Origin: an uncultured bacterium
GTDB lineage: Bacteria > Babelota > Babeliae > Babelales > Babelaceae
NCBI GenBank assembly: GCA_963722385.1
Contig: CAVRKK010000002.1
Coordinates: forward strand, 928,001-992,000
Reading direction: 5' to 3'
Length of the DNA stretch: 64,000 nt
Shown here in pieces: positions 20,539 through 60,501 of this stretch. A model generated the notes under the pieces. It did not search any database. It was not told the origin of the DNA and worked only from the letters and a program-made list of their open reading frames with translations. Position 1 is the first letter of the stretch; each line of letters begins with the position of its first letter. A program made the translations under genes and the position numbers.

Positions 20539-20630
20539 TGGAGGAGAGAGTGGGATTCGAACCCACGATCCCGATCACTCGAGATAACGGTTTTCAAGAC
20601 CGCCGCCTTCGACCACTCAGCCATCTCTCC
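20539..20630 (-). tRNA. tRNA-Ser(UGA)
   Basis: Cloverleaf GGAGAGATGGCTGAGTGG..., loop CTTGAAA, long variable arm, GTTCGAATCC, encoded CCA. Confidence 0.95.
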
Positions 20631-20694
20631 CTGAATAGTGATAGTATATCGTATTGGTTTTTATGAGGCAAGCCGTGTCGACCGAGCTTATAGG

Positions 20695-20771
20695 TGGTGC
20701 GCCCAGGAGGAGTCGAACCCCCAACCTTCAGATCCGTAGTCTGACGCTCTGTCCAATTGAGCTATGGGCGC
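20695..20771 (-). tRNA. tRNA-Arg(ACG)
   Basis: GCGCCCATAGCTCAATTGGACAGAGC, loop CTACGGA, TTCGA, CCA. Confidence 0.96.
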
Positions 20772-20781
20772 GTTTTTTTTA

Positions 20782-20854
20782 TGGCCTGCCATACGACGTG
20801 TCTTGCGAAGCTCGCAGAGCGCGAAGCAAGAAGCTCTGAAGGAGCGAAGTATGG
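20782..20854 (-). repeat. tRNA 3'-trailer palindromic repeat (nested copy)
   Basis: CCATACTTCGCTC...GAGCTTC...TCGTATGGCAGGCC; same termini as 43718-43754 and 25569-25603. Confidence 0.75.
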
Positions 20855-20944
20855 CGGAGAGAGAGGGATTCGAACCCTCGTGCCCCATTTTAGTAGGACT
20901 CTTGCTTAGCAGGCAAGCGCTTTAGACCACTCAGCCATCTCTCC
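20852..20944 (-). tRNA. tRNA-Ser(GCU)
   Basis: Anticodon arm CTTGC-CTGCTAA-GCAAG, long variable arm, CCA. Confidence 0.95.
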
Positions 20945-22540: not shown

Positions 22541-22627
22541 ACTAGGATGCAAACTAGGATAGGTGTTGACATCCTAGTAGCATCCGTGTTAACATCCTAG
22601 TAGATCGTATCAATATTGGGGGACCTT

Positions 22628-24004
22628 GTGATTGAAAAGCTTCTTGCAAGGAATGAAGGTAAAACGCTGGAATTTAAAGAAAATGCAGGGTCTTTGCCCG
22701 GTATTATAAAGACCGTTATCGCTTTTGCAAATACAGCTGGTGGCACTATTGTTGTGGGAGTAGAAGATAAAGTTAAAAAGGTGGTTGGTGTAAACAATGT
22801 TCTTAACGAAGAGGAGCGCTTGATCAATGCAATTTCAGCTTCTATAGCTCCTTTTTTCATTCCCAATATAGATATTCAGACTTATCGCAAAAAAGAGCTT
22901 GTACTGATTCACGTACCTTATGCTTTAGGCCCTTATTATTTGAAATCTGCAGGCATTGAAAAAGGAACCTATGTCCGATTTGGCTCAACTAACCGTGTGG
23001 CTGATGAAGAAATGGTTGCCACGTTGCGATCTCTCGCAAAGAATGTGTCCTTTGATGAGGCTGCTTATATGTATGGAAAGCCTAATCTCTTGGATTGGCC
23101 TACTGTTAATAAGTTGTTCAAACGGGTACATAAATCGGTAACAGAGAACAAAGCTGAAAGCCTGGGGTTGCTTGCCAATTGCTCGGGAAAAAGGTATCCA
23201 TCATTTGGTGGAATTCTACTCTTTGCTGTTGATCGCTTAGAGATCTTTCCTGATTCCGTAATACGCTGTGCTCGATTTGCAGGAGATAATCGTGGTGGAA
23301 AAATTTTAGATCATATAGATATAAGTTCTCACTTGCCCTATGCAGTTGACGATGTACTTCATTTTATTGAGAAAAACACAATGAAACGAGCTGAAATTGG
23401 CAGAATAGTCAGGACGGATATCCCTGAATATCCACCAGAAGCGCTGCGAGAAGCAGTTATTAATGCTCTTATTCATGCTGATTATGCCATGAAGGGTTCG
23501 TCAATAATGATTGCAATTTTTGATTATTATATAGAAATAACTAATCCTGGCAGTTTACCTCCAGGATTAACGATGGAAAGCGCGCTATCAGGGTCTTCAC
23601 GCGTACGTAATAGGGTTATTGCGCGGGTATTTCGCGAACTGAAACTGATTGAGCAATGGGGGTCTGGGCTAAGAAAGATAATAGAGTCTTGTGTTGCTAG
23701 AGGCTTAAAAGAGCCCAAGTTTGAAGAGCTTGGTAATCAATTTAGAGTTACGCTTTACGCGACTATAGCTCATAAAGTCAAATTGGAGGAATGGCAAAAA
23801 GAGTTTATAGCTTATCTTAAAGAAAAAGTGGAAATTAGTACTAAAGAAGCAGCAGAATTTTGGGGCATTGCTACACGTAACGCTCGTCTTAAGTTAAAAG
23901 AACTTGTTGAGAAAGGGATAATCAAAAAAATTGGAACCGGGCCTAAAGATCCTCGCGGTAGATATATTCTGACTCAGAATTTTAATAACTTGGATGAGAA
24001 CTAG
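22628..24004 (+). CDS. Schlafen/AlbA_2 + HATPase_c_4 (RecG C-terminal-like) + wHTH protein
   Basis: EGKTLEFKE, AFANTAGGTIVVGV, EYPPEALREAVINALIHADY, ITNPGSL, RNRVIA...IEQWGSG, C-terminal HTH. Confidence 0.9.
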   Translation: MIEKLLARNEGKTLEFKENAGSLPGIIKTVIAFANTAGGTIVVGVEDKVKKVVGVNNVLNEEERLINAISASIAPFFIPNIDIQTYRKKELVLIHVPYALGPYYLKSAGIEKGTYVRFGSTNRVADEEMVATLRSLAKNVSFDEAAYMYGKPNLLDWPTVNKLFKRVHKSVTENKAESLGLLANCSGKRYPSFGGILLFAVDRLEIFPDSVIRCARFAGDNRGGKILDHIDISSHLPYAVDDVLHFIEKNTMKRAEIGRIVRTDIPEYPPEALREAVINALIHADYAMKGSSIMIAIFDYYIEITNPGSLPPGLTMESALSGSSRVRNRVIARVFRELKLIEQWGSGLRKIIESCVARGLKEPKFEELGNQFRVTLYATIAHKVKLEEWQKEFIAYLKEKVEISTKEAAEFWGIATRNARLKLKELVEKGIIKKIGTGPKDPRGRYILTQNFNNLDEN

Positions 24005-41916: not shown

Positions 41917-42004
41917 TAATATTAGTTCTTAAGATTTTTAAATTCTTTGAAATACACGAGAAAAAATTCGTCTACGATCTTGCGATCACTCACAATTTTT
42001 GTGA

Positions 42005-43540
<1,536 letters not shown>

Positions 43541-43879: not shown

Positions 43880-44555
43880 TGCTTCGGTTTTGCTTTACAT
43901 AAAAAGCCTTTTTGTTATAATTATTATTAGTGAAAATTTTCTTGTGTATATATTAAAAATTATGTGTTCTTTGAAATATCTATAGTGTAATAGTCTAAAG
44001 CGACAATTTACTGAGATCTCGAAATTTGATAAGTTTAGTGGTTAATTGAAAAGGGCTTCCGGTGGATGCCTTGGCACCAAGAGACGATGAAGGAGGCGGA
44101 AGACTGCCATAAGCTTCGGGGAGCTGTCAAACAAGCTGTGATCCGAAGATGTCCGAATAGGGAAACCGATTACGATCAAATCGTAGTACTCGTATCTGAA
44201 TATATAGGGTACGAGGGTGAACGGCGTGAACTGAAACATCTAAGTAGCGCTAGGAAAAGAAAACAAAGTGATTCCCTGTGTAGTGGTGAGCGAAAGGGGA
44301 AGAGCCTAAACTCCTGTTATGTGATAACCTGTGTGTGTTGTAGCAGGGGGGTAGTGGGATGATAATGTCTGAAGAACACAGTCTTCAGCATACGGATACT
44401 TACCTTAGTCGAATGTTTTGAAAAGGACAGTCAAAGAAGGTGAAAGCCCTGTAGGCGAAAAGCTAAGTATCATATGAGTTTTTATTCCCAAGTACCGCAG
44501 AGCACGTGAAATTCTGCGGGAATCTGCCCGGACCATCGGGTAAGGCTAAATACTC

Positions 44556-44607
<52 letters not shown>

Positions 44608-45200
44608 GGGAGGGGAGTGAAATAGAATCTGAAACCGGTCGTCTACAATCGGTGGAAGCGCTGTATAAGAACGCGCAACCACGTACCTTTTGCATAATGA
44701 GCCAACGAGTTATCTTATGTTGCAAGGTTAAGCTTTGAAAGAGTGGAGCCGCAGCGAAAGCGAGTCCGAATAGGGCGATTAGTAGCATGAGATAGACCCG
44801 AAACCTAGCGAGCTACCCATGTCCAGGGTGAAATCTCAGTTAGATGAGATGGAGGCCCGAACCGGTGTAGGTTGAAGACTGCTCGGATGAGGTGTGGGTA
44901 GGAGTGAAAGGCTAATCAAGCTGGGAGATAGCTGGTTCTTCCCGAAATATATTGAGGTATAGCCTCGTCGGATGAATTGTGGAGGTAAAGCACAGTTGAA
45001 GTTTTGGGGGCGCAAGCTTACCGGATTTTTACTAACTCTGAATGCCGCAATTTTAGAAGACGGGAGTCGGACTGTGGGGGATAAGCTTCATAGTCGAGAG
45101 GGAAACAGCCCAGACCATCAGCTAAGGTCCCTAAATGCTCGTTAAGTGTGAAAAGAGGTGGCAGTACATAGACAGCCAGGAGGTGGGCTTAGAAGCAGCC

Positions 45201-45237
<37 letters not shown>

Positions 45238-46034
45238 TTTGCTGCGCTGAAATACAAACGGGGCTAAACGAGCTACCGAAGCTATGGCTTGTAGTGTACT
45301 GCGGTATGCTACAGGGGTAGGGAAGCGTTCTCTAGCAGATACAAGCTCGACTGGAAAGACGAGTAATGGGCTAGAGAAGTGAATATGTTGGTATAAGTAA
45401 CGATAAATAGGTGAAATTCCTATTCGCCGTAAGTCTAAGGTTTCCGTGAGATAGGATCATCCACTCAGGGTTAGTCGATACCTAAGCCGAGGCCAATTGG
45501 AGTAGGCGATGGACAACAGGTTAATATTCCTGTACCACCTTTAAGCGTTTGAGCGAAGAGGGGACGCAGCAGGGTAGGCTGACTTGGCTTATGGATTGCC
45601 AAGTTAAGCACCTAGGGAGATTTGGTAGGTAAATCCGCCAGATCATAGATCCTAAAGTGTGATGAGTATGCTAAATCCTCGTGGTTTTGTGTATTCAGCT
45701 GATCCCATACTGCCTAGAAAAGCCTCTAGTGAGCTTGAAGGTGATCGTACCGCAAACCGACACAGGTAGACGGGCTGAGAATGCTCAGGCGTTGAGATAA
45801 CCACCACTAAGGAACTCGGCAAATTGGCCTCGTAACTTCGGGAGAAGAGGTGCCTGCGATGTGATTTGTGTAATCAGCAAAGAAGCATTGTCAGGTTTCA
45901 ACAAAGAGGCCCAACCGACTGTTTATCAAAAACACAGGGCTCTGCAAACTCGTAAGAGGAAGTATAGAGTCTGACGCCTGCCCAGTGCCGGAAGGTTAAT
46001 AGGAGATGTCAGCTTAAAAGCGAAGCATTGAATT

Positions 46035-46070
<36 letters not shown>

Positions 46071-46334
46071 AACTATTGCTACCAGTAGAGGCCGTTGTAA
46101 AATTTGGCTATATGCTGGAAACTCTCATGTATCCTACACTACTTGCCTATGGGTAAGTGACAATGTGCTAGGTGGAGACAATCAGCAGGAAAGGCCTTGG
46201 CTTAAAAAGCTAAGGAATCCTCAGAGACTATACGCCAAACTCAATTGATAAATTGAGAAGATAGAGTCCGATCTCTATGGCGACATAGAGCGCAAGTAAT
46301 TGCGGCTTTCTCATGTGAGAAAGAAACATAAATA
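46071..46334 (+). ncRNA. Group I intron (IB-like, ORF-less, 264 nt) at 23S position 1923
   Basis: Splits ATAACGGT/CCTAAGG. IGS GCCGTTGT pairs with the 5' exon; core P ATGCTGGAA, Q AATCAGCAGG, R TCAGAGACTA, S GATAGAGTCC. Last base is A. Confidence 0.92.
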
Positions 46335-46362
46335 CCTAAGGTAGCGAAGTCCCTTGTCGGGT

Positions 46363-47076
46363 AAGAGAATCTTGCCCCTTTATCTCGTGAGAGATATTGA
46401 AACACCAGCTCATATCGGGGGAACCCTCCTGAATCTTTATTCAAAGGGCAATCCCGAGGGAAGTCTACCGAAGTATTCGGTATGACCCCGTAACGACTGA
46501 TCCGAAAGGAGAGGCACACGTGTGCGTGTGCAACACGCTGGTTACTTGCCTTAGAAAGAGGGCCTATGGAGATATATAAAGTGCTTAATCCGTGGTTTAT
46601 AACAGGGTTGACTGATGGAGAAGGTTGTTTTTCGGTTTCGTTTACGCTGCGTAAGCGTGTGAAGCTTGGTATAGAAACTCGTCCTTCTTTTTCGATATCG
46701 CTTAATTGTAGAGATCTTAGTTTGATTAAAGCAGTGCATAATTATTTTCAATGTGGCAGTGTACGTTATTGTCAATCTGATAGAACATATAAGTTTGAAA
46801 CTCGTTCTATCTCTGATTTGGTTAAATGTATCATACCTCATTTTGAAAGCTATCCTCTGCAATCAAGTAAAGCTAATGATTTTGAGCAATTTAAGAAGAT
46901 ATGTACCTATGTACATGCCAACCTTCATTTAAGTAGATCGTATCTACAAGAAATCATAGAAATTGCATGTCTTATGAATCCTTCTGGAAAACGGAAGTAT
47001 AGTAAGGATGATCTTCTAAGGGTACTTTGCAAGTAAAAGGTATAGTCTACTTCTTATAGAAATATGAGGTAAAGTG
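46363..47076 (+). ncRNA. Group I intron (IA3-like, 714 nt) at 23S position 1951 with homing endonuclease
   Basis: Splits TGTCGGGT/AAGTTCCGACC. IGS CTTGCCC, R GTAACGACTG, S GGTATAGTCT, terminal G at 47076. Confidence 0.92.
46566..47036 (+). CDS. Single-motif LAGLIDADG homing endonuclease
   Basis: WFITGLTDGEGCFSV, IIPHFESYPLQSSKANDF, MNPSGKRKY; lies inside the L1951 intron. Confidence 0.95.
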   Translation: MEIYKVLNPWFITGLTDGEGCFSVSFTLRKRVKLGIETRPSFSISLNCRDLSLIKAVHNYFQCGSVRYCQSDRTYKFETRSISDLVKCIIPHFESYPLQSSKANDFEQFKKICTYVHANLHLSRSYLQEIIEIACLMNPSGKRKYSKDDLLRVLCK

Positions 47077-47545
47077 AAGTTCCGACCTGCATGAATGGCG
47101 TAACGAGTTGGGCGCTGTCTTGGTGGTGGACTCAGTGAATTTGTAGTACCGGTGAAAATGCCGGTTACCCGCGACTGGACGGAAAGACCCCGTGCACCTT
47201 TACTGCAACTTGACATTGATTTTCGGATAGCTTTGTGTAGGATAGGCGGGAGACTGTGAAGCCAAGGCGCCAGCTTTGGTGGAGTCAATCTTGAAATACT
47301 GCCCTTATCTGTTTGAAAATCTAACTTCGACCCGTAATCCGGGCGGAAGACAATGTCTGGTGGGCAGTTTGACTGGGGTGGTCGCCTCCTAAAATGTAAC
47401 GGAGGCGTTCAAAGGTTCCCTCAAAGCGAATAGAAATCGCTGGGTGAGTGTAAACGCAGAAGGGAGCTTAACTGCGAGGCAAACAAGCCGAGCAGATGCG
47501 AAAGCAGGAGTTAGTGATCCAGTGGTTCCGTATGGAAGGGCCATT

Positions 47546-47582
<37 letters not shown>

Positions 47583-47859
47583 TATCTCCTCTGAGAGTCC
47601 ACATCGACGAGGAGGATTGGCACCTCGATGTCGGATCATCGCATCCTGGGGCCGGAGAAGGTCCCAAGGGTCTGGCTGTTCGCCAGTTAAAGCGGTACGT
47701 GATCTGGGTTCAGAACGTCGTAAGACAGTTCGGTCCTTATCCGTCGTGGGCGTAGGGTATTTGAGGAAGGCTGTTCCTAGTACGAGAGGACCGGAATGGG
47801 TGAGCCTCTAGTGTTCCAGTTGTTTACCAAAAGCAGGCTGGGTAGCTAAGCTCATAAGA

Positions 47860-47890
<31 letters not shown>

Positions 47891-48112
47891 TTGTTCCAAG
47901 ATTAGATACCCCTGTTCTCGAGCAATCGAGAAACTAAGGTCCGTTGAAGACTACAACGTTGATAGGCTGGATGTGTAAGCATAGCAATGTGTTTAGCTAA
48001 CCAGTACTAATAGACCGAACGTTTTAATCACTGATATTAATTTATCAGAGAAAAGTTTAAAGCTTTCGAGTATTACACTATAGATATGAACACGTAATGA
48101 TTTTGAAAGATT

Positions 48113-49248: not shown

Positions 49249-51663
49249 TTAGGGCCCTTTCGCTTTGAGGTTCCAAAGAAAGAGGAACCATTCAAGACGG
49301 GATAGTTGAAGAACGGGAGGGTGCGGTTCTAACCAGGATTGTAGCGGATTGGAAGCACCTAATTCTTTCAAATTACTTATTAAGGTCACTATGCTAGAAA
49401 AGGTCACTGGGCTAGAAGTTGTATCCCCAAGATTTTCCCAGTAATTAAGCCCAGTAAGTCCACCATTGCTCTTGTTGTTAATATAAAAAGCTATTAATCC
49501 TAGCACTGACCCTACCGTCACTGAAGGTATGATCCATTTTAAGGAAGCCAAAAGCTGATCACGGACGGTCTTGTTGTTAGGTGAATTCTGCAAGGCTTTA
49601 TTAAGTTGACGTAAGACTGCTTGCTGATTTAATAAATTATCCCGAGTATCTGTATCGTTATTTCTCGCGGGGGCATTAATGATAGAAGTATTTGCTGCGA
49701 GATCACTAAGCCTATTTGGTTCGTGTTGCTCTTGTATGGTTCCCTGCTGCAGAGCTTGCTCATGAATACCGGGTATTTGAGTGTTTGGTGTTACTGATAG
49801 ATCAAGCTGGTGAACCGGAGGCTGCTTGTCTTCAGTCTCTTCGTTATTAACGATAGGTGTATCAGAGCTTGAGGCTTCAGCGGTATCATGCTCCTGAAAA
49901 TTGCCAATAGATTCGGTAAGCCATGTAATAATATAATCATGACCATTGCGGTGAGCTACGGTGGTAGCCGTTTGACCATCAGTAGTTTGGGCACTAATAT
50001 CTGCTCCATGGGCGACAAGCCACCGAATGGCACTCAATTGTCCTGCGTGAGCAGCCCAATGTGTCGGCTGTCGGCTATCATTATCTGGGGAATCAATATG
50101 AGCACCGAGCTCGACAAGCAGCTGTAGTATAAGCAGATTGCCTCCTGCTGCAGCATAATGTATGGGCTCAATTCCTCGGTTTGTTCGAGCATTAATTGAG
50201 GCTCCCCGTTGAATGAGCAATTGTACGATGAAGAGATTTCCAGCTCGCGATGCCAAGAGGAGAGGCTCAATGTCACCGTGAGCGCGGGCACGGATGTTTG
50301 CGCCCCATGCTACAAGCAGCTCCACCAGCTTGAGGCTCCCCCCGCGAGCAGCCCAGTGGATAGCCTGTTGGCCATATTCATCAGATGCGTGAATATCTGC
50401 GCCGTTCTCGAGTAACCATTGTGCAATTTCTAAAAAGCCATAATGCGCCGCTATATGTAATGGCTGTGCCCCTTCAGCACCGCGTGCATGTATGGAAGCC
50501 CCATGTTCGGCGAGCCATTGAATAGTTTCTTGGTGCCCACCATGGGTAGCGCAATGGATCGCCTCGTTGCCAAAAGTATCCGACAAATTGATAGGAATGC
50601 CGTTTCCAATCAACCATTTTAAAATATCCATCCGGCCATTTTTTGCAGCCCATAAAGAGTTTCTTCGGTGATTATCCCGAACAGCGGTACCATCTTCTTG
50701 GGCAATATCTCTTTCTCGTTGAGCATTGCCGAGCGTACTGTTCTCTTGGCTTTTCTCAGCATCGCTCATTTGTGCTTGCTCTTCGATAGATTTTGGAGCG
50801 GCTTGTTTATTTCCATCGCGCGCGTCGAGATGAGCACCCTTTTGGATAAGCCATCTGACAATATGCGCATGCTTCCTAAGGGCAGCAACACGAATGGGTT
50901 GATTATGAGCTCCATCGCGTGCATTGATATCTGCACCGTGCCCAACAAGCCATATAAGCCCACCAAGCAGTCCATTATGACAAACATGATGAATCGACTG
51001 GTTGTCGTGAGTGTCACGATGATTAATATCTGCGCCTTGATTATAGAGTATCTGTGCTTGAGCCAAATCGCTGGCGAGCAGGGTATTGAGGAATTTTTGG
51101 TCAAGCTTTTCTTGAGTTGGTGAACGTGGTGCCTGTTGCTGATTACTGTCTGATAGGTTTAAAGGTTCTCCAGGAGGAGCAACCTGCTCAACGGTTAAAA
51201 AATCTTGGCCAGATAAAATGAGGAATTCAAAATCTTCGGCTAAACCATCTAATGCGACAGTATTCACAAAATTATCTTGGGCGACCGCTCCTGCAGCGGT
51301 CAAAGCTTGAATGATTGCTTGCGACCCACCTCTAGTTGCTAGATCTAGAGGCAGATGCCCAATGCCATCTGCTGTTGGTGCATTTACATCAGCACCAGCT
51401 ACTACAAGAACGTTGACAACCGCAAGATCACCGCGAGTTACGGCATAATGAATGGGCTGCCAACCGCGATCATCTCTGCTTGATAAATCAAGGTTCCCCA
51501 TCAATTTTCGATAATCAAGGTATGTTTTCAAAACGCCAGCGTCGCTGCTTTTTGTATGTTGAAATAACTTATAGCCTTGAGGTTTTGGTGGCTCCATACA
51601 ATAAGCAGGATTTACGGTAAGTAAGGTAGTTGCTAGAATAAGAATTTGAAGAATCTTTAACAT
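49249..51663 (-). CDS. Secreted multi-ankyrin-repeat protein (804 aa)
   Basis: Signal peptide ...AYC-ME; more than 10 G.qPIH.A...G...h..Lh..GADI repeats; hydrophobic segment near the C-terminus. Confidence 0.95.
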   Translation of the reverse strand: MLKILQILILATTLLTVNPAYCMEPPKPQGYKLFQHTKSSDAGVLKTYLDYRKLMGNLDLSSRDDRGWQPIHYAVTRGDLAVVNVLVVAGADVNAPTADGIGHLPLDLATRGGSQAIIQALTAAGAVAQDNFVNTVALDGLAEDFEFLILSGQDFLTVEQVAPPGEPLNLSDSNQQQAPRSPTQEKLDQKFLNTLLASDLAQAQILYNQGADINHRDTHDNQSIHHVCHNGLLGGLIWLVGHGADINARDGAHNQPIRVAALRKHAHIVRWLIQKGAHLDARDGNKQAAPKSIEEQAQMSDAEKSQENSTLGNAQRERDIAQEDGTAVRDNHRRNSLWAAKNGRMDILKWLIGNGIPINLSDTFGNEAIHCATHGGHQETIQWLAEHGASIHARGAEGAQPLHIAAHYGFLEIAQWLLENGADIHASDEYGQQAIHWAARGGSLKLVELLVAWGANIRARAHGDIEPLLLASRAGNLFIVQLLIQRGASINARTNRGIEPIHYAAAGGNLLILQLLVELGAHIDSPDNDSRQPTHWAAHAGQLSAIRWLVAHGADISAQTTDGQTATTVAHRNGHDYIITWLTESIGNFQEHDTAEASSSDTPIVNNEETEDKQPPVHQLDLSVTPNTQIPGIHEQALQQGTIQEQHEPNRLSDLAANTSIINAPARNNDTDTRDNLLNQQAVLRQLNKALQNSPNNKTVRDQLLASLKWIIPSVTVGSVLGLIAFYINNKSNGGLTGLNYWENLGDTTSSPVTFSSIVTLISNLKELGASNPLQSWLEPHPPVLQLSRLEWFLFLWNLKAKGP

Positions 51664-51705
51664 CTTTATTTTCCTAAAGAGCGCACTTTGAGTTTGCTGT
51701 CAGAA

Positions 51706-51734
51706 AGCATAGCAATATTTATGTTAGTTATCAA
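51706..51734 (-). promoter_or_regulatory. Putative sigma70 promoter of ankyrin gene
   Basis: Minus strand TTGATA-17 nt-TATGCT with extended TG; near-copy at 57489-57517. Confidence 0.65.
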
Positions 51735-52545
51735 TTCCATTTTTGCTCAAAGAGCTGTAGTAACTGTGCTCTTTCATGCGCTGGCTAACTTCTTGCCTCG
51801 CAATGTTATAACGAGCAGCCAAATATTTAGATTGCTTGGTCGCTCTTCTTGCTGCACATATTGCAGATTTAATTTACTAACCAAAAAGTTCATGCATGAG
51901 TTAACGCAACAGGGTTTCTTTCGGTTATGTAGGTAACGTCAAAGGTAAACTTATTTTGGTTGGCAACTTGGGAATTGCTTGTTATTGCCGTTTGATTAGT
52001 GATTTCCAGGTAAATTGTGTCTGAAATTGATAAATGGGTATAGGTAATCTAAACCTCAAGGGAGATCAATCTCCCATTCTGGTAATACTGTCGCAACGTG
52101 ACCTCCTCGCTACATTTACAGACGATGTTGGAATCCTTTTCAGTGTCACTGCTTAAGGGTGTAACGTTTTGCACAAATTGAGCCGATGTAAATTGGTTGC
52201 TTGTTGAATAGATTCAGTAATTTGATCGGCATCTATTCCATTGTTTTCCTCATCAAAAATTACGGTAGTATTACCATTGCTATCTAATATTCGTATGCGA
52301 ACATTTCGTTAGCGACATCTCTAAGGCCATCTCTCTGGTGACTTAAAGTGGACAATCGGGTGGTAATAGCTACACGACTTGCCAATATGGCTTCTTGGAG
52401 TTTGGCAATAGGTTCTAGGCTTTTGGCAAGAGTTTCTAGGTTGTTGGCAAGAGTTTCGCAAATTGTAGAGAAACTTTGTTGGGCAACTTGATTACTGCTT
52501 GTTATAGGATTAGTTTCGCTGTTCTCTTTTCCTGGATCAGATAAA

Positions 52546-53794
52546 CAGGGCCGGCTCACTTAAAAAATTAAAAAACTAAGATATAATGGTTCTCAAAAAA
52601 AACCGGGAGAACCAAGATGGAAGACAGAAATATTAGTTTTTTGGATTATATAGGTGAACTAGAAGACCCAAGAATTGAAAGAGGAAAACTGCATTCAATG
52701 GCAGATATTCTTTTTTTAACTCTGGTAGGGGTTATAAGTGGGTGCGAGGGTTGGAAAGATATCGAATACTACGGAAAAGCTCGATTAGACGTACTTAAAA
52801 AGTATCTACCATTTGAAAATGGGGTACCAAGCGATGATACGTTAAGGAGATTTTTTAGAGCACTTGATCCTAATGAGTTTTCTAAAATATTTGTAAAATG
52901 GGTAAGCGATTTAGTAGCATCAGTAAGGGATAACAGAGACACTGATGATGCAAGAACAGTAGCCATAGATGGGAAAGTGACAAAAAGAAGCTTTGATCAG
53001 GGTGAAACAGAAGATAAAGAGCCTCTTTATCTAGTCAATGCATTTGCGACAGATGTTAGAATGGTCCTTTGTCAAAAAAAGGTAGAAGGAAAATCGAATG
53101 AAATAACGGCTATCCCGCAGCTCTTGGACTTAATTGATATCTGCGGTGCGATAGTGACGATTGATGCAATAGGGACCCAGAAAAAAATTGCTCAAAAGAT
53201 TATTGACAAAAAAGGGGATTATTTGCTTAATGTAAAGGGCAATCAAGGTGATCTTCTTGAAGAAATAAAAACTTTCTTTGAAATAGAAAGCGAATCAAAA
53301 TATATCAATATTAAGCATGATACATTTTCAGAAACAGAAAAAGGGCATGGTCGAATTGAGATTAGGACTTGTACAACAACCGATCAAATAGGCTGGATTT
53401 CTAAAAAGAATGATTGGGTCTCACTAAAGAGCATTGCCTGTATACAATCAGAGCGATTGATTGGTAAGAATAAGACTATAGAAAAACGTTACTACATAAC
53501 AAGTATTCCTGCATCAGCAGAAAGAATATTGCGCGCCGCAAGAAGTCACTGGTTAATAGAGAATTCGATGCATTGGGTACTCGATGTTTGCTTTAATGAT
53601 GATCAATCGAGAATTCGAAAAGGTAATGCTCCTCAAAATGTAGCGACCATCAAAAGTTTGGCGCTTAACTTGCTCAAACGAGCCCAGCCATTGGTTGATA
53701 AGTACATCAGTATCAAATGTCTTCGAAAGCTGTCTTGCTGGCAACCTAGCACTTTGGAATTAATTGTCAATCAAATTTAGATGAGCCGGCCCTG
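52546..53794 (+). mobile_element. ISAs1-family IS, complete (1249 bp) with 10-bp TSD
   Basis: IRL CAGGGCCGGCTCACTTAAA, IRR TTTAGATGAGCCGGCCCTG; ATCAGATAAA duplicated at 52536-52545 and 53795-53804. Confidence 0.97.
52617..53780 (+). CDS. ISAs1-family transposase
   Basis: LEDPR...KLH, GVPSDDT, AIDGK, KSNEITAIP, HWLIENSMHW. Confidence 0.97.
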   Translation: MEDRNISFLDYIGELEDPRIERGKLHSMADILFLTLVGVISGCEGWKDIEYYGKARLDVLKKYLPFENGVPSDDTLRRFFRALDPNEFSKIFVKWVSDLVASVRDNRDTDDARTVAIDGKVTKRSFDQGETEDKEPLYLVNAFATDVRMVLCQKKVEGKSNEITAIPQLLDLIDICGAIVTIDAIGTQKKIAQKIIDKKGDYLLNVKGNQGDLLEEIKTFFEIESESKYINIKHDTFSETEKGHGRIEIRTCTTTDQIGWISKKNDWVSLKSIACIQSERLIGKNKTIEKRYYITSIPASAERILRAARSHWLIENSMHWVLDVCFNDDQSRIRKGNAPQNVATIKSLALNLLKRAQPLVDKYISIKCLRKLSCWQPSTLELIVNQI

Positions 53795-55966
53795 ATCAGA
53801 TAAATTACTTTCTTTAGGTTCATCAGTAATTAAGTTATCATGAGTATTTACATTATTTGCCGCTAATATAACATTAATTGAAGTAGTCTCTGCTTGTTCT
53901 ATGTTTGATTCTTCAAGTTCATCGCCCTCTTTTGGGAGGGCTTCTTTATGAACACTGCGTATTTCAGGCGTGGATGCTCTAGGTAGATCCTGATGGTGAA
54001 TCAGCGATTCTTCCTGCTCGCTTCTGCTTTCTATATCTGCTTGTTCTTCATTAATGACTGGCGTATCAGAACTTGAAGCTGCAGCTCTGTTGTACTCCTG
54101 GAAATTGCCAATAGATTCGGTAAGCCATGTAATAATATAATCATGACCATTGCGGTGAGCTATGCTAGCAGCTGTTTGACCATCAGTAGTTTGTGCGTTA
54201 ATATTTGCTCCATGATCGACAAGCCACCGAATGGCACTTAATTGCTCTGTGTGAGCAGCCCAATGTATTGGCTGTTGGCCATCATTATCTTGAGAATCAA
54301 TATGAGCACCCAGATCGACAAGCAGCTGTAATATAAGCGGATTGCCTCCTTCTGCAGCAAGATGTATGGGCTCAATTCCTCGATTTGTCCGAGCATTAAT
54401 TGAGGCTCCCCGTTCAATGAGCAATTGTACTATGAAGAGATTTCCAGAACGCGATGCCAAGTGGAGAAGCTCAATATCACCATGAGCCCGAGCACGTATC
54501 TTTGCGCCCCATGCCACAAGCAGCTCCACCATCTCGAGGCTCCCTCCGCGAGCAGTCCAGTGGATAACCTGTTGGCCATATTCATCAGGGGCGTGAATAT
54601 CTGCGCCATTCTCAAGTAACCATTTTGCAATTTCTAAAAAGCCATAATGCGCTGCTATATGTAATGGCTGTGCCCCTTCAGCATCGCGTGAATGTATGGA
54701 AGCCCCATGTTCGATGAGCCATTGAATAGTTTCTTGGTGCCCACCATGGGTAGCGCAATGGATCGCCTCGTTGCCAAGAGTATCCGACAAATCGATGGGT
54801 ATGCCATTTTCAATCAACCGTTGTAAAATATCCATCCTACCATGTTTTGCGGCCCATAAAGAGTTTCTTCGGTGATTATCCCGAACCGCGATACCACTTT
54901 CTTGGGCAAAATCTCTTTCTCGTTGAGCATTGCCGAGCGTACTATTCTCTTGGTTTTTCTCGGTATTGCTCATTTGTGCTTGCGCTGCGATAGACTTTAG
55001 AGTGGCTTGTTTATTTTCATCGCGCGCGTCGAGATGAGCACCCTTTTGGATAAGCCATCTGACAATATGAGCATGCTTCCTAAGTGCAGCAACACGAATG
55101 GGTTGATTATGAGCTCCATCGCGTGCATTGATATCTGCACTGTGCTCAACAAGCCATATAAGCGCACCAAGCAGTCCATTATGACAAACATGATGAATCG
55201 GCTGGTTGTTGTGACGTCACGATGATTAATATCTGCGCCTTGGTTACGAAGCATCTGTGCTTGAGCCAAATCATTGACGAGCAACGCATTGAGGAATTTT
55301 TGGTCTAGCTCTTCTTGAGTTGGTGAACTTGATGCCTGCTGCTGATTACTGTCCGATGGGCTTACTAGTTCTCCTCGAGGAGCCTGATCAAGGTGCTCAA
55401 CAGTTAAAAAATCTGGGCCAGATAAAACGAGGAATTCAAAATCTTCAGCTAAACCATCTAATGCGATGGTATTCACAACATTACCTCTTGTATGAGCTTC
55501 TAAAGCAATCTGGGGATGGGCGACCGCTCCTGCAGAGGTCAAAGCTTGAATGATCTCTTGCGACCCTGCTTGTATTGCTAGATCTAAAGGCAGATGCCCA
55601 TTGGCATCTGCTATTGGTGCATTTACGTTAGCACCGGCGGCTATAAGAACATTGATAACCGCAGGATCGCCACGAGTTACAGCATGATGAATGGGCTGCC
55701 AACCTTGATTATCTTTGATAGCTAAATTAAGTTGCCTGATCAATTGTCGGTAATCGAGAAAGTTCTTCAAGGCGGTAACATGGCCACATTTGATGTGTTT
55801 GAACAGCTTATGGCCTTTAGGTTTTGGTGGCTCCATACAATAAGCAGGTGCTATGGTAAGTAAGGTAGTTGCTAGAATAATAATTTGAAGGTTCTTTAAC
55901 ATTCTTGTCTCCGTAAACGGGCATGCTTAAGGTTTGCCGTCAAGCATACCAACGTTTTCTGAGAAA

Positions 55967-56914
55967 TCAATGCAGAGGGACTCTTTTTCCAGTTGCCTCA
56001 TACACGAAACCTATTTCGTTCAAAATTATGCCCGGCTTTAATTTGCCACCTGGTCCGACCACAGCCGGCTTAATAAATAGCCAGGAAGTTCTATGGCCAT
56101 TTTTGAAAATAAAAGTGGGAAGGCCACCCCCGCCAGCGCGAATGTGAATCCCATGCTTATTTATAATTTTTACCAAATCGTTATCGAGGATAAACTTCTT
56201 GAAGTCTGGAAATCGAGGAAAGAATTTTGATGACCTGATATCAATAACCTCAACCTCATTATAAATGATGAGCTCTTCTGATAATTTTTGGCTGTCGACA
56301 TGAGCAATGGCAGAGTCAGTTGACTCGACTATTGATGAAAATGCTGCTTGTGCGTCATTAAGCTGTTTTACCGGCTGAGCAATCGGAGGTATTGGGGCAG
56401 AAATTGATCCCGAATTTGTAAGTACCTCTAAAGCTCTTTGACGGTTGAGCTTGCGAGCTAAGTCTCTTGGCTGTTCCCCATAATTGTTTTTGGCAGCGAG
56501 ATCAGCACCCTTGCTTTGAAGCCATTTGATGGCTTCTTCGTTCTGCAGGATAACGGCAAGGTGAAGGGCGCGGTCACCGTAAAAATCCTGAGCATCAATA
56601 TGAGCGCCACGATCAAGGAGCAATTGAGCTCTTACGAGATTGCCCTCGTAGATAGCTTCAAGAAACTCTTGGTTTAACTGATATTGGGTGTCGCCCGCTA
56701 TCTTTTGATAGACAGCCCACAAAAGCCATTCGATATGGTTGCGTGGAACTTGAATGCCAAGACCCGCCACATTGGCGCTAATGGCTTTATCTTTCACCTC
56801 AAGCTTGAAGAGCTTTTTGTACCATATTTTATAAAAAGGCTCGTTATTGTCATCACCTCTAAGTGATTGACCATTTATTGCTGCACATAAAAATATTATT
56901 GCCAATATGCGCAT
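55967..56914 (-). CDS. Secreted ankyrin protein with unknown C-terminal domain
   Basis: MRILAIIFLCAA signal; LLLDRGAHIDAQDFYGDRALHLA; C-terminal ~100 aa not recognised. Confidence 0.85.
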   Translation of the reverse strand: MRILAIIFLCAAINGQSLRGDDNNEPFYKIWYKKLFKLEVKDKAISANVAGLGIQVPRNHIEWLLWAVYQKIAGDTQYQLNQEFLEAIYEGNLVRAQLLLDRGAHIDAQDFYGDRALHLAVILQNEEAIKWLQSKGADLAAKNNYGEQPRDLARKLNRQRALEVLTNSGSISAPIPPIAQPVKQLNDAQAAFSSIVESTDSAIAHVDSQKLSEELIIYNEVEVIDIRSSKFFPRFPDFKKFILDNDLVKIINKHGIHIRAGGGGLPTFIFKNGHRTSWLFIKPAVVGPGGKLKPGIILNEIGFVYEATGKRVPLH

Positions 56915-56945
56915 TGTTTTTATACCTCTTGTAAATATTTTTAAA

Positions 56946-57446
56946 CTATTCGTTGCCGAGCAAATGATTTTCTTGAAGCGCCTGGATAAGAATAGGGTCA
57001 TTAGAGGCTATGTCGATAGGACGTTGGCCTAGATCATCATGTGCTTCGGCATCGGCTCCATATCTCATGAGCAGCTTGATAAGACCTGCCTGTTTTTGAG
57101 CTACCGCCCAGTGAAGTGGCCGTAATCCAGCCATGCCACGTGCATTACTATCAGCACCATATTCTAAAGCCAGTCGAGCACGTTTGTAGTCACATGAGCG
57201 GATGGCATCAAAAAGATTTTGGTCACGTTGAGCCCAAGCTTGATAGAACGGGTAGATATAATAGCCAAAACCGGCAAGAGTACCAATAACGGTAGCCGAG
57301 ATAAACATTATTTTTTTGTTGCTTATCTGAGCGCCATGTGCTGGTTGGTGTTGAGCGCCTTGCGAGGTTAAGAATCCAGCGAACAGAAAGGATATAAAAG
57401 CTGTTTTGATAGTTGGTAAAATAAAAATTTGAAGCCCCTTTAATAT
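56946..57446 (-). CDS. Small ankyrin protein; homologous start codon is ATA
   Basis: ORF 56946-57308 extends in frame to ATA-TTA-AAG (ILKGLQIFILPT), matching MLKILQILILAT of the paralogs; GLRPLHWA repeat. Confidence 0.7.
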   Translation of the reverse strand: MLKGLQIFILPTIKTAFISFLFAGFLTSQGAQHQPAHGAQISNKKIMFISATVIGTLAGFGYYIYPFYQAWAQRDQNLFDAIRSCDYKRARLALEYGADSNARGMAGLRPLHWAVAQKQAGLIKLLMRYGADAEAHDDLGQRPIDIASNDPILIQALQENHLLGNE

Positions 57447-57488
57447 TTTTGTCTCTCTAATGCCCGAGTTTAGTTACTATTGACAGAA

Positions 57489-57517
57489 AGCATAGCAATG
57501 TTTGCGAGGAGCATCAA
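57489..57517 (-). promoter_or_regulatory. Putative sigma70 promoter (copy of ankyrin leader)
   Basis: Minus strand TTGATG-17 nt-TATGCT; shares ATTGCTATGCTTTCTG with the 51701-51716 region. Confidence 0.6.
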
Positions 57518-57530
57518 TCTCTTTTTTTAT

Positions 57531-59189
57531 TTAAAAAGTTTGGGTGAGTGCTACCCAGAAAAGGCCAGCGCCTGGCTCTAAAACGTTAGCGTGAGACCCT
57601 GAAGCGAATGCCTTGGAATAACCGATGTTCAATGATCCTGGAGACTCGCGCAGCGTGAAATCGTACCGATAATAAGCATAGAGTTTATGCTGTACAGCTG
57701 GCTGCTGTAGATGATGAAGCCTTAGTCGCATAGTATGGTCTCGGGGAGAGGTGAGCTCAAAAAGAAAATCTTCCGCTTCATAATGCTGCGCTATATTGAA
57801 CGTAGGATTATAGCCAAATTCAATGTGGTGCTGGTTGTTATCGCCAAGTTGATTATCAAGACCGAGGAGTATATCGATGAAGCTTCCAGGATGTGATGTG
57901 AGGCTGTTATCGGATATAAAGTGCCCATCTTGTTTACGTGAGTTTATTTTAATAGTGTTGTTGAAAAAATGTAACCAGCGCACGTTGGTTATTAAGTCAT
58001 GATTCGTACAATCAGTTTGTTTAAGATTCGTAGATGTATAGCATTCTAGGCCTGCAACCAAATGGGGCAAATCAACGAGAGGCTCTTTTTTCGTCAATTC
58101 TTGTTCTAGCTCTTTTCTAATGCGGTTAAATGAGCCACCAACCAGCCCTCTTAGGGTAAAAGTAACGGGCCCCCATTGTTGGCATCTTCCTACTGCTATC
58201 AAAAAATCTCTAAAATCGAACGAAGAATAGGATAATTTAAGTCGACGGTCCTCAAAGAAATTTACCTGAATGCTTGATAGAAGGCTCATAACATCAATCT
58301 GCCAAGGTCCGAGACCAAGATATGACCGAAAGATAACGCCGGCCTCAAATTTATTGAGCCGTTTACCAAATGCGGTTTGGTTGGCTTGAATAAAGGGGAT
58401 ATAAGAACCAACAAATTGAACCCATTGGTCTTCACGTAGGTTTGGTATCAACGCTTGCTCGAGTCCTAGGTTATAGATAGGTGAATCAATAGTTCGAGAT
58501 AGAATAAAGCAGTCAACGAGGTCCTCAGCGCGTGGCGAATGAAAGCTCGATGATTTTCTCTCAAAGAAATCGTCGCTAAAATCGTCAAAGAAATCATCGT
58601 CTTGAAAAGATTCCGACGATGATTTCTTTTCATCATTCGCTTCGCCGCGGTTCGCATCTGTTTTGGCTGTGTACCAATCCGATGTTTTTTGATTCTCAGA
58701 AGTTTTAGGTGGCTCACAAGAACAATAAAGCTCTTCGAATAGTGAATCTTCGAGACACGTGCCCGGCCATTTGGTAGCAAAACAGGTGCAGGTTTGGTTT
58801 TTAGAAGTGCAGCCATCACGTTTTGCCTGCTCCCTCATCAAGTTTTTAATTTTGTAAATCTGCTCATAAATCTCTTCATAGAGGTCTTTTTGCGAATTCT
58901 CGGAATATTTATTATTGCTATAACTTGTGTACGTAAAATCTTCTTTTTTTGTTTCTTGTTTCACGCGTTGTTGATTTATTTCATCGCACGCATTATTAAT
59001 GTCGAGATAAGCTCTGAGGATTTTACCGTTGTTCTTGTCGGGGTGGTAGCGACCCCGCAGGGCCCGGCACCGCTTTTCAATTTCTTTAGACGTTGCATGG
59101 CGACCAATGCCTAAAAAGGTATAAGGGTCTGTCATGGTACGAGTATTGAATGTAAAAATGAAGCACAGCAGAAAAAATCTTTTGTTCAT
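57531..59189 (-). CDS. Signal peptide + DnaJ J-domain + putative beta-barrel (family member 3)
   Basis: DPYTFLGI..ATSKEIEKR.RAL..RYHPDKN..INNA; acidic linker; HIEFGYNPTF; ends FWVALTQTF. Confidence 0.75.
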   Translation of the reverse strand: MNKRFFLLCFIFTFNTRTMTDPYTFLGIGRHATSKEIEKRCRALRGRYHPDKNNGKILRAYLDINNACDEINQQRVKQETKKEDFTYTSYSNNKYSENSQKDLYEEIYEQIYKIKNLMREQAKRDGCTSKNQTCTCFATKWPGTCLEDSLFEELYCSCEPPKTSENQKTSDWYTAKTDANRGEANDEKKSSSESFQDDDFFDDFSDDFFERKSSSFHSPRAEDLVDCFILSRTIDSPIYNLGLEQALIPNLREDQWVQFVGSYIPFIQANQTAFGKRLNKFEAGVIFRSYLGLGPWQIDVMSLLSSIQVNFFEDRRLKLSYSSFDFRDFLIAVGRCQQWGPVTFTLRGLVGGSFNRIRKELEQELTKKEPLVDLPHLVAGLECYTSTNLKQTDCTNHDLITNVRWLHFFNNTIKINSRKQDGHFISDNSLTSHPGSFIDILLGLDNQLGDNNQHHIEFGYNPTFNIAQHYEAEDFLFELTSPRDHTMRLRLHHLQQPAVQHKLYAYYRYDFTLRESPGSLNIGYSKAFASGSHANVLEPGAGLFWVALTQTF

Positions 59190-59571
59190 AAAAAACCAGT
59201 TAAGTGTAAGAAATTTGATTTAATTATACATAAAGATAATAAAATTGGAAGGCCCCGATTTATGACAAAACTTAAAAAATAGAAAAAATATAATTTATAT
59301 TTGTTGCCGAAGATTGCCGCATTGGTAAAAGATTATATAAAAAACATGTTATTATTATTTATCAATCCTTTTATATTTTACATACATTGCACGTCAATTA
59401 CTCCATCTATTCTTTCTTAGAGCTGCTCTCAATCCCCTATCGCTATTTTTGGGCTTAAACTCGCCCTTGCTTTGTTCGCTCAATTGATATAATGTGGGCT
59501 CCGGGTAGTGGCAATTTTTGAGAATATTAGTTAAACATCTTGTACAAGATTTACTCATTCAAGGAAGATCT

Positions 59572-60501
59572 ATGAAGAAGAACACATTAAGAGCAAGAAT
59601 TTCTATGCTCCACCTGATGTTACTTATAATGGCATCACCATGCGCTGCCAATGCAAACACAGGCTATAATCTCTATGAGGACAGTTACCTAAGGGAACTC
59701 ATATGTGATCCTCGCGGACTTATAGCTGATGATCCAAATTATAGAGATTATCTAGCAAGACTTCTTGATAGTCAGGAGTGCGAGCAGCCGACAATATTTA
59801 CTAAATTAGAAATATGGTTAGGTAAAATATGTACACTTGATATATTTGCAAGGAGTAAGACCGGCAAGGAGCTTCTCCACTTTGCAGCAGAATGTAATCC
59901 TGGCATAATACCGCTGCTCCTTACCAAGGGCGCTCATGTTAACGTAAGTGATAATGATGGCAATCAGCCTCTTCATATTGCAGCACATCATAACCATGGG
60001 AAAGCATCAACAGACCTTATCTGTGCAGGAGCCGATGTAAAAGCCAAAAATGAGAGGGGCGATACACCGCTGCATATTGCAGTGCGTGATCTTGATAAGA
60101 GATCAGTAGTTTTAAAGCTTTTGCGATTCATCCTACAATATGACGGCTATAAAGAAGCAAAAGAAGTAATAATAAAGCAGCTTGTTCTTGCCGGCGCCTT
60201 TATGATGGCGGAGAACAGCAATGGAGAGACTCCAATTACTATAGTTAAGGACCAGGATTATCAAGATCTCGCCCAGTGGATGGAAAAAAATAAGACATGG
60301 CAAGAGACGGCGAAGCAAAAGATATGGCCTATAATCCTTACGGGCCTTGGGAGCTTAGCACCCTTTCTCGGGCGCCACCTCATCGAGGACCTAATTTGCC
60401 CTCAACCCAAAAAGTCTTTCTTATGTTCAATTTCTGGCTGGAGTTGCCCGCTAGAATCATCATTAGCTTGCAAAGTTTTGAAGCCCTTAGTAGCCAAGTA
60501 A
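59572..60501 (+). CDS. Secreted ankyrin-repeat protein
   Basis: GNQPLHIAA, GDTPLHIAV, GETPI; signal-like N-terminus. Confidence 0.9.
   Translation: MKKNTLRARISMLHLMLLIMASPCAANANTGYNLYEDSYLRELICDPRGLIADDPNYRDYLARLLDSQECEQPTIFTKLEIWLGKICTLDIFARSKTGKELLHFAAECNPGIIPLLLTKGAHVNVSDNDGNQPLHIAAHHNHGKASTDLICAGADVKAKNERGDTPLHIAVRDLDKRSVVLKLLRFILQYDGYKEAKEVIIKQLVLAGAFMMAENSNGETPITIVKDQDYQDLAQWMEKNKTWQETAKQKIWPIILTGLGSLAPFLGRHLIEDLICPQPKKSFLCSISGWSCPLESSLACKVLKPLVAK

Follow-up and report, generated by a model that had tools for sequence, protein, structure and literature searches.

The window analysed here, a stretch of 64,000 nucleotides from the genome of an uncultured member of the Babelaceae, contains one rRNA operon, and the 23S gene of that operon is interrupted by two introns (Table 1). 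Its cysteinyl-tRNA synthetase has its named homologues in Babeliaceae and Babeliales; along with the genome size and the abundance of ankyrin proteins, this suggests a host from the Babeliales (Dependentiae), which are parasites of protists. The source genome (G000) measures 1.6 Mb, is 93% complete and lies in 2 contigs, in which neither a second 23S gene nor an intron-free junction was found; across the host phylum, 133 of the 135 genomes with a match have one copy of the 23S gene and the other 2 have two. The introns occupy what we take to be positions L1923 and L1951 by E. coli numbering. This numbering agrees with the spacing of the exons, in that the 6-nt exon separating L1917 from L1923 in relatives and the 28-nt exon onward to L1951 add up to 34 bp, the exon length given in the title of Raghavan et al. 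2007 (J Bacteriol 189:6572) on Coxiella.

The same L1951 intron is present at two loci of relatives (L005, L135) with its ORF deleted, leaving 277-278 nt, and a contig of a peat metatranscriptome (run X4, depth 4) equals window positions 46867-47066, or 200 nt of this intron, with 0 differences. Between the two introns, 23S positions 1938-1940 are variable in the host phylum, where GAAGTCCC, GAAATCCC, GAAGTACC and GAAATACC are seen (window 46347-46354); most fetched loci from other phyla have GAAATTCC there. Ankyrin-repeat proteins, of which the genome has many, are clustered just 3' of the operon (49249-60501, with members at 49249-51663, 53777-54973, 55967-57001 and 59518-60501), together with an ISAs1 transposase (52617-53780) and a DnaJ-domain protein (57531-59189). 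A Schlafen/AlbA_2 and HATPase_c_4 protein (22616-24004), possibly a defence gene, adjoins a tRNA cluster at 20539-20944.

Table 1. Features of the rRNA operon and of the intron at 23S position 1923 (window coordinates)
Feature	Position	Strand	Basis or remark
rRNA operon, one in the window	16S 42001-43540, tRNA-Ile, tRNA-Ala, 23S 44040-48031, 5S		
23S rRNA gene with two introns	44040-48031	+	Rfam RF02541; sole copy detected in the genome
5' exon end and P1 5' strand	46062-46070	+	U46070 (U1923) pairs with G46091; 9/9 pairs; same helix in the folded strand
Group I intron L1923, 264 nt, without endonuclease gene or P2	46071-46334	+	RF00028; exon continuity; folding z = -4.85
P1 extension and loop	46076-46090	+	predicted to re-pair with the 3' exon, forming a two-part P10
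Internal guide sequence (P1 3' strand), L1923 type	46091-46099	+	
Core: P3 (46103-46108/46234-46239), P4 (46113-46118/46182-46187), P5, P6	46103-46239	+	closer to relatives' L1917 introns
P7 (46224-46230/46264-46269) and P8 (46240-46257)	46224-46269	+	
P9.0 (A46271-U46333, U46272-A46332), P9 with GCGA loop, P9.1, P9.2 (L1917-type extension), tail	46270-46333	+	
Omega-A, final intron base	46334	+	read directly; contig X1, 0 differences
Middle exon, 28 nt (1924-1951)	46335-46362	+	first 13 nt are the predicted P10 partner
Second intron, L1951, 714 nt, ends in G	46363-47076	+	intact 156-aa LAGLIDADG_1 ORF at 46566-47036

A group I intron in helix 69 that ends in A

The intron at position 1923 matches the covariance model RF00028 with 74.2 bits, against a gathering score of 50, and it has both the U.G pair of P1 and a core with the G-C pair of P7; the terminal guanosine is absent. 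It splits helix 69 between an exon ending in TATAACGGT (at 46070) and one resuming with CCTAAGGTAGCG (from 46335), and the joint 46070>46335 is fixed, as 0 letters fit on either side. P1 comprises 9 pairs with U46070.G46091 at the 5' splice site, and P7 consists of G46224-C46269, a bulged A46225, the G-binding pair G46226-C46268, three more pairs and a terminal A46230.G46264 mismatch. All of the helices P1, P3, P4, P6, P7, P8, P9, P9.1 and P9.2 pair, and no plus-strand ORF of at least 80 aa was found in the intron. As far as the available part of PMC1995217 describes the subgroups, the lack of P2 is compatible with IC2, IA1 or IB4.

Group I introns terminate in a guanosine (omega-G) with such near-universality that the rule is taught as universal. 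The intron described here ends in ACATAAATA, with A46334 in the omega position (omega-A), and its exons rejoin exactly on the DNA, as they presumably do by ligation in the RNA. Logan contig X1 (record 6; 742 nt, depth 5.3) matches 46271-47012 with 0 differences and so also reads A at 46334, the base for which the original prediction had advised confirmation; since this contig may derive from the window's own source sample, it is not independent support. Independent support is that 10 further distinct introns also have A at the junction; two of them were each found in three separate assemblies. Contigs from two relatives (X2, X3) span the 3' junction. The original prediction had described an unambiguous junction, a final A and an intact guanosine-binding pair along with a terminal A-G mismatch in P7, and in each of these respects the locus is as it stated.

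That omega-A is real is thus confirmed, and the exception itself was already known from Coxiella and from a coral intron. The Coxiella burnetii intron lacking omega-G is said to be Cbu.L1917, to end in A, to have no ORF and to self-splice more slowly. The layout in the window parallels this one, the omega-A intron having no ORF and being followed by an endonuclease intron at L1951; in both, a bacterial 23S group I intron in helix 69 lacks omega-G (Raghavan et al. 2007, J Bacteriol 189:6572, to the extent of its accessible text) beside an L1951 LAGLIDADG intron, of 720 nt and 157 aa in Coxiella (PMC1995217, accessible sections) and 714 nt and 156 aa here. The window site lies 6 nt downstream of that of Cbu.L1917 (a 28-nt as opposed to a 34-nt middle exon), as the original prediction had recognized, and belongs to another phylum. 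In contrast to the Coxiella intron, omega-A at L1923 is one of 11 cases, most of them endonuclease-bearing. The hexacoral mitochondrial intron ND5-717 also ends in A and interrupts an essential gene, with perfectly ligated exons in vivo and >70% of the precursor unspliced (PMC6545197, available portion). Ligation, which we infer here, was seen for ND5-717; that intron is a giant, obligatory and vertically inherited mRNA intron of animal mitochondria, whereas the L1923 intron is small, lies in an rRNA and belongs to a mobile family that includes G-ending sisters. The suggestion that the window holds a second omega-A ribozyme is consequently not supported, given this published coral case and the ten further examples at L1923 reported here.

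LAGLIDADG group I introns of 23S domain IV are well described in what is accessible of PMC1995217, PMC11270868, PMC11019260, PMC3984707 and PMC4990558, with single-motif forms at L1917, L1931 and L1951 in Synechococcus, Thermotoga, Simkania and CPR bacteria (PMC1995217, PMC11270868, PMC11019260). The window intron shares with them the rRNA region, the lack of P2, the P7 motifs and, in relatives, an endonuclease ORF in P6, and differs in being an A-ending L1923/L1917 mosaic without an ORF. Position 1923 is absent from the intron sites named in the accessible text of the latter three papers, and no paper on L1923 in bacterial 23S genes turned up. Nor did we find, in mostly open literature and main texts, a paper on omega-A at L1923, a mobile omega-A lineage, a link to P10 or rRNA introns of Babeliales; the parts seen of PMC3428280, PMC10964413 and PMC3679873 yielded nothing on omega-A.

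Distribution and origins of omega-A at position 1923

A scan of GTDB, which sought a purine before the L1923 3' exon, gave 120 stretches among the matches listed: 117 G-ending introns (two of them identical at the 3' end), 2 A-ending introns (L029 from Margulisbacteria and L120 from Omnitrophota) and 1 intron-free stretch. The least biased share of omega-A among L1923 introns is accordingly 2/119 among the matches listed. A second scan, of JGI metagenomes and for A only, enriched the omega-A set; it returned 20 stretches. Ten were omega-A introns, comprising six sequences not seen before, L029 twice and L146 two more times; the remaining 10, intron-free variants or poor sequence, were set aside. 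Within Omnitrophota, 6 of 401 genomes match, three with A (L120, L177, L181) and three with G, and 1 of 146 Margulisbacteria genomes has omega-A, this being the same case as L029. Distinct omega-A L1923 introns number 11 with that of the window. At two control sites in the fetched loci, every intron has G as its last base (25 complete introns at L1951, 8 at L1917). An L1917-type junction occurs in 1 of 401 gammaproteobacterial genomes. An intact LAGLIDADG ORF is present in 9 of the 11 omega-A introns, the window intron and L155 having none; the L1923 introns of the relatives L135 and L136 carry an endonuclease ORF. In four other omega-A genomes, all MAGs, we likewise found a single 23S copy.

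L1923 introns are common in genomes of uncultured Acidimicrobiia, Solirubrobacterales, Dehalococcoidia, Acidobacteriota and CPR bacteria (L012-L131; at least 120 stretches). At the same site, a green-algal chloroplast intron carries I-CeuI. In nine L1923 introns (L029, L120, L146, L153, L162, L163, L177, L181 and the G-ending L180) the core is dual-coding: the endonuclease frame starts inside it (M..ADNQQERL across P5/P4/P6) and runs to P6-P7. In the intron-free 23S genes of L144, L145, L151, L152, L154, L156 and L070, A or G replaces U1923; these might be natural variants or errors, and could escape L1923 homing.

A single omega-A clade was considered and rejected by AU tests on both the endonucleases (p 1.2e-8; 7 omega-A rows vs 33) and the ribozyme cores (p 1.4e-5; 9 vs 75, with two rows skipped and three long rows out). 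The trees need 3-5 changes at omega, or 4 in both once L177-L181 are added (the protein tree minus two long rows, the core tree minus four), and at least 3 of the changes are forced by well-supported branches. Six omega-A introns, spanning Margulisbacteria and Omnitrophota and with 70-84% DNA identity, form one endonuclease clade (100/99) in which the G-ending L180 is nested, and the omega-A introns L155 and L160 are placed among actinobacterial G-ending introns. To judge from these trees, omega-A apparently arose several times, in at least three lineages, one of them old and apparently mobile; from the names of the hosts together with the tree, we infer that it has moved between phyla.

The window intron has a history of its own. 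In the host phylum, 13 of 260 other genomes match it (one marginally) and 11 gave complete introns, namely 7 L1923 and 7 L1917 introns, all 14 of which end in G. Three of these genomes (G015, G029, G188) have L1917 and L1923 introns in tandem around the 6-nt exon AACGGT (L004, L008, L132), as does L057. Within a genome, such tandem cores are very similar and a likely substrate for recombination and exon skipping. The P1 and guide of the window intron are 66-79% identical to those of the family's L1923 introns, as against 24-34% for six of seven L1917 introns and 62% for the seventh; its P7-P8, conversely, is 78-88% identical to L1917 introns vs 59-73% to L1923 introns, and its P9.1-P9.2 extension is of L1917 type. 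In a core tree with other L1923 introns, a comparison that the original prediction had also proposed, the nearest kin all end in G, and the core of the window intron comes closest to that of the L1917 intron in G001, a genome of the same genus (89% over 178 columns, support 85/92). The window copy therefore has the site and guide of the L1923 mobile introns, with neither their endonuclease nor a core descended from theirs, and by sequence comparison it is a mosaic in which a P1 of L1923 type is attached to a body of L1917 type. The simplest account, and a likely one, is that tandem L1917 and L1923 introns, like those of the relatives, underwent recombination or gene conversion. The idea of a relocated ribozyme holds in part, as the body is L1917-like; the A, however, was not carried over from the L1917 introns seen here, since all 8, that of G001 included, end in G. 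The core tree does not follow the last intron bases, and the terminal A may have arisen in place or have come with the tail of an omega-A donor.

Predicted pairing on both sides of the 3' splice site

The register of the 3' end was examined in 127 L1923 rows with a recognisable P7, 114 of which have GA after P7. In 101 of these 114 there is a Watson-Crick pair (U-A, C-G, G-C or A-U) between omega-2 and the third base 3' of P7, compared with 49.7 on average and at most 67 in shuffles, and with 48 and 4 in shifted registers, and both P9.0 pairs are kept in all 9 omega-A introns of the 114-row set. This covariation indicates that it is the A which fills the omega position. Neither the G-binding pair nor the P7 and J6/7 motifs depart from the canonical form in the 9 omega-A introns tabulated or in L177 and L181, and a remodelled G-binding site was rejected on that ground. 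The terminal A.G mismatch of P7 was likewise rejected as a compensation for omega-A: it occurs in 1 of the 9 tabulated omega-A introns, 8 lacking it, and two L1917 introns of relatives (L006, L008) have it although they end in G; it is therefore incidental. A UAAC(A) motif 6-9 nt before omega is conserved in the last 12 nt of most L1923 and L1917 introns; the window intron reads AAACA in its place.

What sets the omega-A introns apart is the predicted P10. In the window intron, a proximal helix of 4 pairs (46090 and 46086-46088 with 46335-46338) is joined by 8 distal pairs, in which the P1 loop at 46076-46083 (TTGCTACC) is complementary to the exon at 46340-46347, giving 12 predicted pairs and -17.2 kcal/mol (shuffle p = 0.005). 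Energies were taken as the gain from pairing the guide's 5' segment with 14 exon bases; a measure over 8 exon bases misses the distal helix and rates the window intron weak. Among L1923 introns with a placeable 5' end, the median predicted P10 is -15.6 kcal/mol for omega-A (n=11) and -7.9 for omega-G (n=76). All 11 omega-A introns reach -10.9 kcal/mol or below, compared with 21 of 76 omega-G introns, at a cut-off chosen after the data were seen, and every omega-A P10 beats shuffles of its own guide segment (p <= 0.04). A P1-loop motif, GCUAYY, is found in 10/11 omega-A vs 18/76 omega-G introns, and GG directly before the guide G, which provides two contiguous G-C pairs at the junction, in 10/11 vs 13/76; the window intron is the sole omega-A exception to the latter feature, which is also absent from the G-ending L180. 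The actinobacterial-group omega-A introns L155 and L160 have a strong P10, and most of their neighbours do not.

In short, omega-A is found at L1923 in several lineages, and a strong predicted P10 accompanies it every time. The nominal p-values (about 1e-5) exaggerate this association, given the relatedness of the introns; independent contrasts number only 3-4, with 3 pairs on starred or supported branches. The GG trait mostly moves with omega-A, with a sign test p of 0.25-0.5 for that trait alone over 3 pairs. As the G-ending sisters of the window intron also have a strong P10, it is better seen as a permissive background than as a later repair, and as such a background it may have made omega-G dispensable.

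Probable splicing without a terminal guanosine

We think it probable that an L1923 omega-A intron with a normal G site splices accurately, with predicted pairing on both sides of the 3' splice site holding the A. In the first step, free guanosine or GTP would cleave after U46070, as suggested by the canonical U.G pair of P1 and the G46226-C46268 pair. In the second, the freed P1 loop and the guide would anneal to the 3' exon over its first 13 nt in the 12-pair, two-part P10, while P9.0 would pin the two bases preceding A46334. That A would then sit loosely in the G site as the exons are ligated, probably more slowly than with G and perhaps with help from a host protein. P9.0 and P10 strongly raise binding of the 3' substrate in the Tetrahymena ribozyme (PMC2588497, accessible part). 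The contigs of RNA run X4 include joints 46070>46335 with sides of 26 nt (<30 nt) at 85% likeness, which are indistinguishable from the intron-free 23S of other bacteria. More tentatively, and at somewhat less than an even chance, the findings may be read jointly: omega-G would have become dispensable at least three times at position 1923 through a long two-part P10 between GCUAYY and exon positions 1929-1934, giving the first known mobile, endonuclease-carrying omega-A lineage to cross bacterial phyla.

Accurate splicing might instead depend on a protein, either the intron's own LAGLIDADG protein acting as a maturase or a host chaperone, that makes omega-A tolerable while the strong P10 is an unrelated ancestral trait. 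The intact ORFs of most omega-A introns and the paucity of independent P10 pairs speak for this, as does the maturase-like activity of a Thermotoga 23S intron protein (PMC3984707, in the part available). We nevertheless regard it as unlikely, given that two omega-A introns have no ORF, that such proteins are also encoded by most G-ending L1923 introns, and that at least three omega-A lineages all have the strong predicted P10. Less probable again is that the intron splices poorly or not at all, with ribosomes supplied by an unassembled intron-free operon or with the retained intron tolerated. Helix 69 is an essential subunit bridge, which argues against this reading, as do the intact core helices, P1, P9.0 and P10, the age of the omega-A lineages with their endonucleases kept intact, and the single 23S copy in each of five omega-A genomes; in its favour are the incompleteness of the window's genome and the MAG status of the others, the two genomes of the phylum with two copies and, in a source available in part, an unspliced 23S group I intron on record from a chlamydial bacterium.

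That A46334 is an assembly error for G is very improbable: every one of the 7 L1923 introns from the host's order has a terminal G, and the lone supporting contig is shallow and perhaps from the same sample, but that contig agrees throughout its length and the same ending recurs in the ten other introns. Editing of A46334 to inosine in the precursor by a TadA-type deaminase, yielding a G-like omega base, deserves scarcely any credence. TadA prefers UAC, UA|CC stands at all 11 junctions, and the genome encodes a PF00383 deaminase as well as a tRNA-Arg(ACG); yet that U-A-C context is forced by P9.0 and the exon and is common to G-ending introns, the site is not an anticodon-like loop, and the deaminase is only putatively TadA. 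A 3' splice site at one of the nearest Gs, G46323 or G46340, would honour the omega-G rule and is just as implausible, as helix 69 with its flank would grow by 11 nt or shrink by 6 nt, G46323 is part of a P9.2 pair, and P9.0 covariation and P10 point to 46334.

To our knowledge, the known natural exceptions to omega-G are isolated cases without matched controls. The window intron alone is modest news; it is the set of 11 omega-A introns at one site, of several origins and with close G-ending sisters, that together with a structural hypothesis makes a standing question testable and offers a testable rule for 3' splice-site choice, with the long P10 as a specific structural candidate for tolerance of A. 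Natural A/G pairs (L120 and L177 vs L180; the window intron vs its family's L1923 introns) would allow a direct test of how a 3' splice site is chosen without guanosine. The finding is relevant to software that places intron ends at the last G, and to the engineering of ribozymes, for which the requirement for omega-G is a constraint. Finally, the mosaic suggests that neighbouring rRNA introns swap ribozyme bodies, and that the guide and the catalytic core of an intron can differ in history.
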